This document shows, piece by piece, positions 36,001 through 39,000 of a DNA stretch of 64,000 nt (its first letter is position 1; each line of letters opens with the position of its first letter). The stretch is from Escherichia coli. Lineage in GTDB: Bacteria; Pseudomonadota; Gammaproteobacteria; Enterobacterales; Enterobacteriaceae. The position numbers are program-made. Where the stretch lies: assembly GCF_041248615.1 (NCBI RefSeq), contig NZ_CP158425.1. One strand, written 5' to 3'.

Positions 36001-39000
36001 TTTGGATCTATGTCCAATGTCGGCCAGACGTGGCCCTGATGATTCTTGCCCTTTGTACAGGAAGTGATTAAGTGTACTGAGCGTTCAGAGAACATTATCT
36101 TCCTTACATACCCATAGAACAGCTTTCTAAGAACGGTGGGCTCGCCTGAAAATTACAAATCAGCCCCTTTCACGGCATCATTTTGATTCTTCGCGTCTGC
36201 CCCCAGTAAGATGACCGGTTTTCTGCATGACAGTGTTATTCCTAACAAACGCAACACAAAACCACGCCAGCCAGAGCAAATTTTTTCATTTGCTGCGTAA
36301 AGCCTATTGTTTTCTCTTTTAAGCTTCGCCCACTCGTTACAGAGGGTAACATCATCAAGCGCTGTTATATGCTTCGCCTCACCTTCGACGATAACGGTAT
36401 GGATACCGTATGCTGTAAATCTCATACTATTTTCCAGAACCCAGTTGCGGTATTCGTCGAGTCCACCTTCGGAACCGGTAGCTCTGCGCCACATTTCAAT
36501 TTGCTTGTGTGATGGGTCAAGTGTACTTGTCATTGAAGCCTCGTCTCAGCGATAACGCTTGAAATAGCCCGCTTTGGTCATCATGAAATTAGCCATCTGA
36601 CTGGCGATTTGATTGTATCTTACTCATAGTGCCCTACCTATAGGTTAAAAAGGGGCATTTTCGCTTTATAGCGTGTTCAGCAGCATCAATCCTCCCAAGA
36701 AAGGCTGGCTTATTAAGCCGGTCCATCATTTTCTGTATATCTCTCATCAATTTTTATATCCGCCCTGGAGTGCACCGTTCAAGCACACCGATTAGGCAGA
36801 TAGTCACTAGTTAACTCTTTACTAGTGACTAAATTCCATTGATATACGTGACAACGTCACGTCATGAAAGCTTTTAAATGCCTATTTTTCATACAATGGG
36901 ATTTAATTAGGAGTAAATCCCATAGGCTTACATAAGGATGACAATTAAAAGCGTTAAATATCAACCAGATAGAATGATTACCCCCAATTAATGGGCTCAT
37001 CACATTATTTCACTGGCTGGGGTTATTGCTGGCATATCTGAAAGTGCTAATATGTTAGTCATTAGTAATTAGTAAAGCCTTTACTAAACGCGTTTCTACG
37101 TAAATTCTATAGGTTTTATAGGGTCCTACCTTTGCTCAAATCAAAATGTTCTGACATACCAAAATGGAGTGTAAAATGACTCAAAACCAGGGTTCTGAGC
37201 CAGTACCGGCGAGCCGGACAGGGCAGCTCATCAGCGCCCGGGATATGGCCATGCAGAAATTCGAAGAAGGGATGCGGTTAATCTCGGAAGCGTCGGAACT
37301 GTGCGGTCTCTCTCTCTTCACCAGCAGAATTATGCAGCCCAACGCATTTGGTCTTCCGTCGTCACTGGATCGCACCATCGAGGAGGGGCGTAAGGAAATT
37401 GACCGTAAAACGTGGAAAAGGCTCTTTGAAGAAACAGGTATGGACCGGTACTGGAACCATAAGCAAAAAGAAGCCTTTAACGAATCCCTTCGTACGGATC
37501 CGCCCGTCGCTTCCCTGGAGATTGTTAAGGGAACATTACAGCATGCACTGGCTAACAGACGAGACACCCTTGCAGAAGGTTTCGTTGATGTTCTCAACAA
37601 GCTTGACCGAAGTTTCAAAAGCAATGCCAGGCAATATACAATGCCAAAAAAGCTTGTTCTTCGGGGGATTTTTCCTGGTGTGAACGTGCTGAGGTACAAC
37701 GGTTTCTCGCAGGACAATCACTTTTGTTTACGCGACTTTGAGAATATTGTATGCATCTGTTCTGATACTCCAACACCTGCAACCGGCGGTGGGCTGAGTA
37801 TGGTCGACAGGCTGACGGCCATGAGAAATACAGAATTCACAGGCGAGGTCAGTGATGAGAATGGCTGGCGGTGTCGCCTGTTTGAGAATGGAAACGTTCA
37901 TATTTGCATCGACAGTATCTCGCTTCTGAATGCTCTGAACGATCTTATCAGCATATATTTTGCAAACCAGCTTCCGGCCGCAGGAAAAAAATGATGATTG
38001 AAAATGATAAAGAAAAAAGCCTGAACGATGCTACCCCGCCAGAGGTGCAGAATGACATCCGCAGCGAATCCACTGAAAAATCAAAGGAAATGGGTCGTTC
38101 AAGGTACTCATCTATCGCGATGATCGATTACTTCAATGCAATCGAACGTCTGTGCAAAGAGAAAGAAATTAACCCGGAAAATATCGATCTGAGCTTCAAA
38201 GTTCACTGGCTCAGAAACGCTGTTGGCGGCTCGTTTGCAAGGTCACAGGAGATGTTCGCGGAGTACCAGAAGTATGTTAAAGAGGTTCCTGAAGAGGCCC
38301 GTTACCTGGATATACCCGATGAGGTAAAGGTTGCACTCGGCGATATTATCTCGTACATCACCTGGCACTACCGTAGAAGCTATACCGCAATACAGAATGA
38401 TAGTGTTAAAAAAGCTGAAGCACGTAGCATGCAGCTGGAGGAGGAGGTAACGCAGCTGTTACAGCGGCTTGAGCAAAGCGCTACCGATATGGATGAGCTG
38501 AAACTTGAGAATCAGGCACTACAGGGTCGATTAGAGATCCGGGACAGTACCGTCAAGGAGTTAGAAACAAGGCTGAATGTTGCCGAAGCAGAACTCGAAA
38601 CCTGCCATCACCAGTTAGATAGCACACGGCATGAATTGAGCCTCGCACAGCAGTCAAATGACTCACTCTCCCAGCAACTGGCTGAACGTAAAACAGAGAT
38701 CGCTGGTCACCTTGAATATCAAAAAAAGCTGAACGAAGAGATCAACACGCAGCGTTCTGATAACGCCGGTCTTTCCAGACAATGCGACCAGTTAAGTCAG
38801 ACTGTGTCAGATACAAAGGCAGAGAGGGACAGGTTTGAACAGGAATTGATTGCTGCACAGAACCTTTGTACTGAGCTGAAAAGTGCACTGTCCGGGAAAG
38901 AGGGTGACCTGGTGGCGGTGAATGCCGAGCTTACTGAACTCCATAAACTAAACGAGTCGCTGAGCGCCGACCTGAATAAAGTAACTTTGGTCAGCCAGGG

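Follow-up and report, generated by a model that had tools for sequence, protein, structure and literature searches.

The stretch of DNA analysed here, referred to as the window, comprises 64,000 nucleotides of Escherichia coli contig NZ_CP158425.1 (assembly GCF_041248615.1) and belongs to the backbone of an IncHI2 plasmid. It includes a 642-bp gap between two divergently transcribed genes, orf126 on the left (minus strand) and a gene for a DUF4942 protein on the right (plus strand), which harbours four perfect dyads (P1 to P4) together with arrays of a 7-bp motif. Comparison with related plasmids indicates that the IncHI backbone carries these dyads and heptads as a conserved cis-acting module. 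On balance, their conservation pattern suggests that the dyads are probably protein-binding operators of a conserved IncHI control region serving two divergent backbone operons. The literature searched contains no description of the module; elements of this kind are well known.

Much multidrug resistance, as well as resistance to colistin (mcr-1) and to tigecycline (tet(X4)), is carried by plasmids of the IncHI1 and IncHI2 groups. The IncHI backbone is mostly unannotated, and its regulation is known for the transfer genes only. The gap would represent a compact conserved control module, composed of two heptad arrays and two dyads, for genes encoding a DpdC-like protein, the DUF4942 protein and a TlpA-like coiled-coil protein.

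Organization of the dyads and heptads

Three palindromes had been quoted in a first-pass annotation of this sequence, which placed them between divergent genes. They are present where it described them, and the setting is correct: the upstream end of orf126 lies at 36533 on the minus strand and the ATG of the DUF4942 gene at 37176 on the plus strand. P1, quoted as AGTCACTAGT...ACTAGTGACT, has arms of 11 bp rather than 10, and P2 is longer than the quoted gtgacaacgtcac. That annotation had missed P3, the heptads shared by P1 and P4, and the alternative of P3 as a recombination site. The elements are as follows:

36801..36831, unstranded: P1 dyad, TAGTCACTAGT-taactcttt-ACTAGTGACTA (11+9+11)
36846..36862, unstranded: P2 dyad, ACGTGAC-aac-GTCACGT (7+3+7)
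36896..36923, unstranded: P3 dyad, ATGGGATTTA-attaggag-TAAATCCCAT (10+8+10)
37056..37076, plus strand: three direct heptads, TAGTCAT TAGTAAT TAGTAAA, from a pattern search
37069..37087, unstranded: P4 dyad, TTAGTAAAG-c-CTTTACTAA (9+1+9), quoted earlier as tagtaaagcctttacta

The heptad TAGT(C/A)AN is common to P1 and P4, while the sequences of P2 and P3 are unrelated. P1 consists of two inverted double heptads of the type TAGTCAC TAGT(T/A)AA, namely TAGTCAC TAGTTAA, 3 nt, TTTACTA GTGACTA; an alternative reading has arms of 14 bp, one mismatch and a spacer of 3 nt. In P4 the last direct heptad is paired with one inverted heptad, the whole array being TAGTCAT TAGTAAT TAGTAAA G C CTTTACTA. The P1 and P4-side heptad arrays are 255 bp apart. 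Between them, the core of P2 (GTGAC-N3-GTCAC) occupies positions 36848-36860, and this core is found a single time in the 265-kb plasmid.

The accumulation of dyads in the gap is not random. The gap region was compared with 2000 dinucleotide-preserving shuffles: it contains five perfect inverted repeats whose arms are 7 bp or longer (shuffle mean 0.56) and three whose arms are 9 bp or longer (shuffle mean 0.04), and in both cases 0/2000 shuffles reach the observed number. The 64-kb window has 12 dyads with arms of this greater length, and 3 of them are located in the gap. Moreover, the elements are unique. The full 265-kb plasmid was assembled for a copy search, and no further copy of any dyad or tandem heptad was found in the whole of it. 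The pattern TAGT[CA]ANTAGT occurs four times in 265 kb, always in P1 or in the heptads at 37056-37076, and TAGT/ACTA is enriched about 30- to 50-fold in the two heptad sites. A plasmid-wide regulon was rejected in view of this confinement of dyads and tandem heptads to one locus in 265 kb.

P1 shares an 11-mer, ACTAGTTAACT, with the consensus GTACTAGTTAACTAGTAC of the host Trp repressor (PMC2811016; PMC2504314), and could on this ground be taken for a TrpR operator. TrpR, however, needs two CTAG-centred half-sites placed symmetrically around the dyad and 8 bp apart. The second CTAG is replaced by CTCT in P1 (ACTAGT-TA-ACTCTT), the symmetry of P1 rests on ACTAGT hexamers 15 bp apart and not 8, and the 11-mer is lost in IncHI1 and in allele L020. 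With the wrong spacing, a missing second CTAG and a non-conserved 11-mer, a TrpR operator at P1 is extremely improbable and was rejected.

Conservation among IncHI2 alleles and in IncHI1 plasmids

Conservation in related plasmids had been put forward as a check on the palindromes; it was carried out here, and the dyads are kept across IncHI2 alleles and into IncHI1. Four distinct IncHI2 alleles were aligned: the window type, the R478 type, KAM622 and a metagenomic/Logan type. The non-coding region differs by about 9% between the two main IncHI2 alleles, and the variation is unevenly distributed: between 36730 and 37128, 8/95 positions are variable in the dyads versus 90/304 elsewhere (Fisher p = 6.6e-6). 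P1 is the least conserved dyad, with four variable columns. The core arms of P2 show no change in any IncHI2 allele or in IncHI1, and variation of its 3-nt spacer (AAC, ACC, GGT) is limited to IncHI1. P3 is invariant among the four alleles, spacer included, save for its outermost base. Only 1/32 columns varies in the heptads and P4, and the whole segment 37034-37100 (TGcTAATAT, heptads and P4) is almost invariant.

The same elements are found, in the same order, in IncHI1-type plasmids, where the DUF4942 protein orthologues show 63-64% identity. In pHCM1, R27 and a Klebsiella michiganensis plasmid the genes are syntenic (hns, dpdC-like gene, gap, DUF4942 gene, coiled-coil gene), and orf126 is missing. 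The IncHI1 gap, of about 500 bp, is barely alignable to the window outside the elements. Identity to both IncHI1 sequences reaches 83/104 (80%) in the elements versus 108/265 (41%) outside (p = 4.8e-12), and of seven exact runs of at least 9 nt shared by the IncHI2 and IncHI1 gaps, five fall in P3 or in the heptad/P4 block. The spacing of P1, P2 and P3 is about 47-49 bp in both lineages.

The individual elements differ in how they are kept. At the position of P1, IncHI1 has a related heptad site, TAGTCAT..CCTTTACTAA..ACTAGT. P2 of pHCM1 is ATGTGAC-acc-GTCACAT, a symmetric change in both arms relative to the window. P3 is the most conserved dyad: its arms are identical between IncHI1 and IncHI2 (20/20), and its spacer is ATTAGGAG in the window and ATTCGGGG or ATTATCGG in IncHI1. 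In pHCM1 the P3 arms extend to 16 nt with 94% complementarity. The IncHI1 heptad/P4 block reads GTGCTAAT followed by TAGTCAT TAGTAAA G.C.TTACTA, with P4 kept as TAGTAA-aggcg-TTACTA. None of the motifs was found in a distant MOBH plasmid whose DUF4942 gene lies in another context, with neither the coiled-coil gene nor a divergent dpdC-like gene.

These comparisons bear on the notion that the palindromes are chance features of an AT-rich, H-NS-silenced region and have no sequence-specific role. The gap has a G+C content of 38.6%, the plasmid codes for H-NS and Hha homologues, and the R27 genes flanking the gap are more highly expressed at 37 degrees C, as might be expected of such a region. The notion is nevertheless very improbable in view of the shuffles, of dyads conserved far above their surroundings, and of invariant arms combined with variable spacers. 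The first-pass suggestion that the palindromes could be H-NS-modulated elements found no specific support: H-NS recognition would not conserve perfect dyads with invariant arms and variable spacers, and hns of R27 does not show the temperature response of the flanking genes.

Another proposal would be that the hairpins act as RNA or as single-stranded DNA, for example as a small structured RNA, as terminators or attenuators, or as a priming or single-strand promoter signal after conjugative entry. Each strand folds into a more stable structure than its shuffles (z = -3.3 for both), a conserved terminator-like hairpin exists at 36703-36723 as a separate element, and members of the orf126 core family are frequent in conjugative plasmids. 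Equal fold stability of both strands is, however, what is expected of plain DNA dyads. The stems are kept by sequence and not by compensatory change, and the changes in the P1 arms break pairing. P2 and P4 would also make poor hairpins, the conserved part of P2 being 5 bp with a 3-nt loop and the loop of P4 a single nucleotide; no Rfam family reaches its threshold in the gap. Finally, the origin of transfer (oriT, beside mobI) is about 90 kb away. Together these points make a role as RNA or single-stranded DNA highly unlikely. The more specific candidate, a leading-region single-strand promoter, was rejected on account of this distance from oriT and of the lack of a long imperfect hairpin.

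Divergent operons and predicted promoters

The genes on either side of the gap, the promoter-like sites and the terminator-like hairpin are listed below.

36153..36533, minus strand: orf126, first gene of the leftward operon in IncHI2, without counterpart in IncHI1
35430..36095, minus strand: DpdC-like (DUF6884) gene (Pfam; PADLOC DpdC, E = 4.1e-59; synteny)
37176..37994, plus strand: DUF4942 gene, first of the rightward operon (Pfam PF13708, E = 2.8e-26; RefSeq annotation)
37991..39196, plus strand: coiled-coil protein gene, small helical head, candidate regulator (R27 orthologue R0158)
37026..37053, plus strand: candidate promoter of the DUF4942/coiled-coil operon, TTGCTG, 16 nt, TGcTAATAT with an extended -10 (position weight matrix (PWM) scan)
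36612..36640, minus strand: candidate orf126 promoter, TAGGTA, 17 nt, TACAAT (PWM prediction)
36703..36723, plus strand: conserved terminator-like hairpin, GGCTGGCTT-att-AAGCCGGTC with a short T run (stem stronger on the plus strand, two G-U pairs there)

The candidate promoter TTGCTG-16-TGcTAATAT, with its -10 at 37048-53, ranks second on the plus strand in IncHI2 in the PWM scan, and its positional homologue in IncHI1, TTGGTC-17-TGcTAATCT, is the top plus-strand candidate. The segment GTGCTAAT of this promoter-like site is invariant between IncHI2 and IncHI1 (8/8). The heptads start 3 nt (IncHI2) or 10 nt (IncHI1) past it, and P4 lies just downstream. On the other side of the gap, the P1-like heptads of IncHI1 overlap a minus-strand promoter-like site, TTAGTA-16-TATAAT. 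The -10 of the corresponding site is decayed in IncHI2, where orf126 has its own conserved upstream block with TACAAT. The candidate orf126 promoter falls in this nearly invariant block (36584-36663), which is preceded by the terminator-like hairpin. If these predictions are correct, P1 may have drifted in IncHI2 because the minus-strand -10 decayed and orf126 has an upstream block of its own.

A model can be proposed in which the leftward operon would consist of orf126 followed by the dpdC-like gene in IncHI2, and of the dpdC-like gene alone in IncHI1, and the rightward operon of the DUF4942 gene followed by the coiled-coil protein gene. The P1 and P4 arrays lie at opposite ends of the region, each close to the best promoter-like sites there. 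A single dimeric or oligomeric regulator could bind both heptad arrays and repress the promoters by occupying positions -10 to +30. This regulator would most likely be the product of the second rightward gene, the coiled-coil protein, autoregulating as KfrA and TlpA do and possibly in a temperature-dependent manner. P2 (GTGAC-N3-GTCAC) and P3 (ATGGGATTTA-N8-TAAATCCCAT) would be separate dyads, whose invariant arms and free spacers follow the pattern of sites for symmetric dimers.

The operators of the Omega repressor of pSM19035 consist of 7-bp units in direct or inverted arrays at several promoters, and the IncHI heptads can be likened to them. They differ from the Omega operators in heptad sequence, and orf126 is missing from IncHI1, where heptads persist.

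The first-pass proposal of operators for a plasmid regulator is partly supported and is also the preferred reading here: the sites form conserved islands in a fast-diverging gap and flank or abut the best promoter-like sites; the regulator itself is a candidate.

Several observations weigh against the operator interpretation. A strict consensus promoter scan of the gap returned zero promoters, and the PWM scores in the gap are average, no better than the window background. Changes in the P1 arms (one T-to-A in the R478 type, two in L020) are not compensated. The gap is not essential, since insertions of IS3, Tn3 and Tn7-like elements are tolerated in it. P2 and P3 have no candidate binder, and P3 coincides with a reported recombination junction. 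As to the coiled-coil protein, Pfam KfrA_N gave no match to the IncHI2 or IncHI1 proteins even at E <= 10, although TlpA matches it at 5.6e-17, and hhalign against TlpA gave a probability of 8%. The AlphaFold2 (AF2) model of its head has three helices, at low confidence (predicted local distance difference test score 58), too low to warrant a fold search. Lastly, the temperature effect in R27 is small and possibly due to H-NS/Hha.

A candidate regulator resembling KfrA and TlpA

Coiled-coil and SMC-like matches cover approximately residues 135-380 of the coiled-coil protein, and the AF2 model shows one long helix from residue 79 of the modelled fragment; the protein has a long alpha-helical coiled-coil tail. 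Its head is found in IncHI plasmids only. The R27 orthologue, R0158, is listed as "tlpA, regulator" in a transcriptome supplement (PMC7366339). BLASTP against the genuine TlpA of pSLT gave E = 0.003 with the heads in register, LRNAVGG-SFARSQEMFAEYQ versus LRNQVGGGNPTRLRQIWDEYQ (LRNxVGG...EYQ). The protein is accordingly described as one that would work like KfrA and TlpA and not as a member of that family, its head being no more than a possible homologue of theirs.

Proteins of the KfrA type autoregulate on plasmids and have a helix-turn-helix head and a coiled-coil tail; their operators are an inverted repeat (R751) or five 9-bp iterations (RA3) over the -10 of their own promoter (PMC7821693). 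Like KfrA of RK2, R751 and RA3, the IncHI protein is encoded on a plasmid and combines a small N-terminal head with a long coiled-coil tail. The KfrA operators resemble the IncHI 7-bp iterations, direct and inverted, which start 3 nt past the conserved, predicted extended -10 of the coiled-coil operon. Unlike KfrA, the IncHI head lacks a Pfam KfrA_N match, and the regulator gene would be second in its operon, behind DUF4942. The IncHI region also differs in having a second heptad array (P1) 255 bp off on the divergent side and two unrelated dyads between the arrays.

TlpA is a temperature-dependent homologue of KfrA-type proteins (PMC7821693; PMC9611254). It keeps its own promoter repressed below 37 degrees C and no longer does so above 42 degrees C (PMC9611254). 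The likeness of the IncHI protein to TlpA of pSLT lies in its overall architecture, in the weak in-register similarity of the heads, in the tlpA annotation of the R27 orthologue, and in the behaviour of the R27 genes that flank the gap. TlpA is, however, a clear KfrA_N member whereas the IncHI protein is not, and the upstream region of tlpA has no comparable dyads.

In an R27 microarray (PMC7366339), expression of genes on both sides of the gap rises 1.6- to 2.7-fold from 25 to 37 degrees C, and that of hns does not. The fold changes, 25 versus 37 degrees C, are:

R0158 (coiled-coil orthologue): -1.62
R0159 (DUF4942 by gene order): -2.66
R0160: -2.66
R0161: -1.89
R0162: -2.13
R0163: -1.99
R0164 (hns): +1.47

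This pattern may fit a thermolabile repressor, and may equally fit silencing by H-NS/Hha; unlike the case of TlpA, the effect is small and not linked to the coiled-coil protein. Should the coiled-coil protein bind the region and sense temperature, the known thermoregulation of IncHI plasmids would come to include a protein thermometer.

P3 as a possible recombination site

The architecture of P3 invites a different interpretation, namely that P3, with its neighbours as possible accessory sites, is the core site of an IncHI site-specific recombination system which would resolve multimers and occasionally fuse plasmids when spacers match. P3 has a 10+8+10 structure with an asymmetric spacer, ATTAGGAG, and occurs once per plasmid; its arms are 100% conserved between IncHI1 and IncHI2 and its spacer is lineage-specific. 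In these respects it resembles loxP, dif, cer and rfsF, in which inverted recombinase-binding arms flank an asymmetric spacer of 6-8 bp and which occur once per replicon. Both plasmid groups encode a tyrosine recombinase.

P3 has also been found at an inter-plasmid junction. In a laboratory fusion between an IncHI2 mcr-1 plasmid and the IncHI1-type plasmid pRW7-1, one junction is a 42-bp sequence which contains P3, and the other junction of this mcr-1/tet(X4) fusion plasmid is at intI1 (PMC8653826). The junction primer pCLDRW1-F matches positions 36479-36498 of the window. In addition, p1559-mcr (L029) differs from the window in this region by a P3 spacer (36906-36913) of the IncHI1 form, ATTCGGGG, plus one other substitution; it shares 30 bp of identity with pRW7-1 at P3, and this swapped-spacer allele is present in 13 plasmid records.

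The authors of the fusion study, however, attribute the junction to homologous recombination (PMC8653826), and an identity of 30 to 42 bp is possibly enough under strong double selection. The gene for the tyrosine recombinase, WP_000795946.1, is 42 kb off in IncHI2, and nothing ties the recombinase to P3. In contrast to loxP, dif, cer and rfsF, P3 has arms of 10 bp, no linked recombinase and a promoter-region setting; its position in a divergent promoter region beside three other conserved dyads is a better fit to regulation. A genome-wide scan for P3-like sites returned IncHI2 fragments and unrelated hairpins only, the latter probably by chance. Because the case comes down to one fusion event and one spacer-swap lineage, recombination at P3 is regarded as a minority explanation and as unlikely. 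If true, it would explain the fusion of IncHI1 and IncHI2 resistance plasmids. A further extension, distinctly unlikely, is that the P3 spacer could be a compatibility code, and that a switch to the IncHI1 form would make IncHI1 tet(X4) plasmids available to an IncHI2 lineage as recombination partners; mcr-1/tet(X4) fusions with their junction exactly at P3 would then be explained.

Plasmid context and neighbouring genes

Under the preferred reading of the gap as an operator region, the genes that it would control belong to the IncHI2 backbone. The segment 36000-38000 has matches in 1178 plasmid records and is 100% identical to Salmonella pSE08-00436-1 (IncHI2A, MOBH, MPF_F). Elsewhere the window contains mcr-1, hipBA, the ter cluster, a gene for an H-NS homologue, and the tet(A), mer and class 1 integron regions. 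In IncHI2 the order leftward from the gap is orf126, then the DUF6884 (DpdC-like) gene, with hns further on; rightward, the DUF4942 gene is followed by the gene for the coiled-coil protein, WP_001572381.1, of 401 residues. The DpdC-like gene is the direct divergent partner of DUF4942 in IncHI1.

Residues 39-117 of orf126 correspond to a widespread family of proteins of about 80 residues on conjugative plasmids (78 representatives at E <= 1e-3), found in the IncI1 "yafA" neighbourhood, in IncF and in Klebsiella plasmids. Its AF2 model has the topology helix, helix, beta-hairpin, long helix, and a fold search with this model gave no significant match. A 381-bp gene of length equal to orf126, named "tgtA5 cluster protein 2", is present in pELE1-215 (IncHI1B-typed); the record contains many frameshifts and was therefore unusable. 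The neighbouring gene, a strong match to DpdC, a 7-deazaguanine DNA-modification protein, stands alone, with neither dpdA nor dpdB.

The DUF4942 gene is the orthologue of R27 R0159, as assigned by gene order. Within its coding sequence, a sub-threshold match to Hammerhead_HH9 on the minus strand (37189-37253; 22 bits versus a gathering threshold of 52, E = 0.028) is almost certainly due to chance. A second, far longer DUF4942 protein (563 residues) is encoded at 257070-258761 of pSE08-00436-1, outside the window, near genes for Dam-type and other methyltransferases. A small protein gene within the gap was also considered and rejected, as it offers just implausible open reading frames of 20-48 residues, not kept between alleles.

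Insertions and allelic variation in the gap

The gap is a site of insertion in other IncHI2 plasmids. Independent insertions or breakpoints lie at about 36630, 36711 and 36735: they comprise an element of the IS3 family, a transposon of the Tn3 family within the terminator-like hairpin, and one further breakpoint. Many IncHI2 plasmids also carry a Tn7-like sil/pco/rcn element (TnsA, rcnA/rcnR) at CCTAC, 48 bp upstream of DUF4942. This element has TGT...ACA ends and generates a 5-bp duplication of CCTAC, and its right end abuts the P4 block. Two features of this part of the gap can be listed:

37124..37128, unstranded: CCTAC, target-site duplication of the Tn7-like element, the site being empty in the window
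36975..37020, unstranded: hypervariable patch between IncHI2 alleles, about 50% diverged with flanks at least 90% identical

In E. coli chromosomes, 683 places have an end of the Tn7-like element at the yhiN 3' end. P4 was considered as a mimic of a Tn7-like attachment site recognized by a TnsD/TniQ selector, and this was rejected, as comparison of the yhiN flank with 37040-37128 revealed no similarity by eye.

Some alleles depart from the general pattern. In L022 (a contig of GCA_900603205.1), scrambled patches at 36708-36822, 36887-36905 and 36930-36975 replace the left arms of P1 and P3; orf126 is truncated and assembly quality uncertain in this record, so that the patches, which reflect either real decay or an assembly problem, were left uninterpreted. 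The hypervariable patch at 36975-37020 contains a small allele-specific dyad, CCCAATTAATGGG in the window type and GAAGAACTCTTC in the R478 type. In L016 (pKAM622_2), a 24-bp tandem duplication at 37033-37056 (TCTGAAAGGGCTAATATGTTAGTC) doubles the -10-like element just upstream of the heptads.

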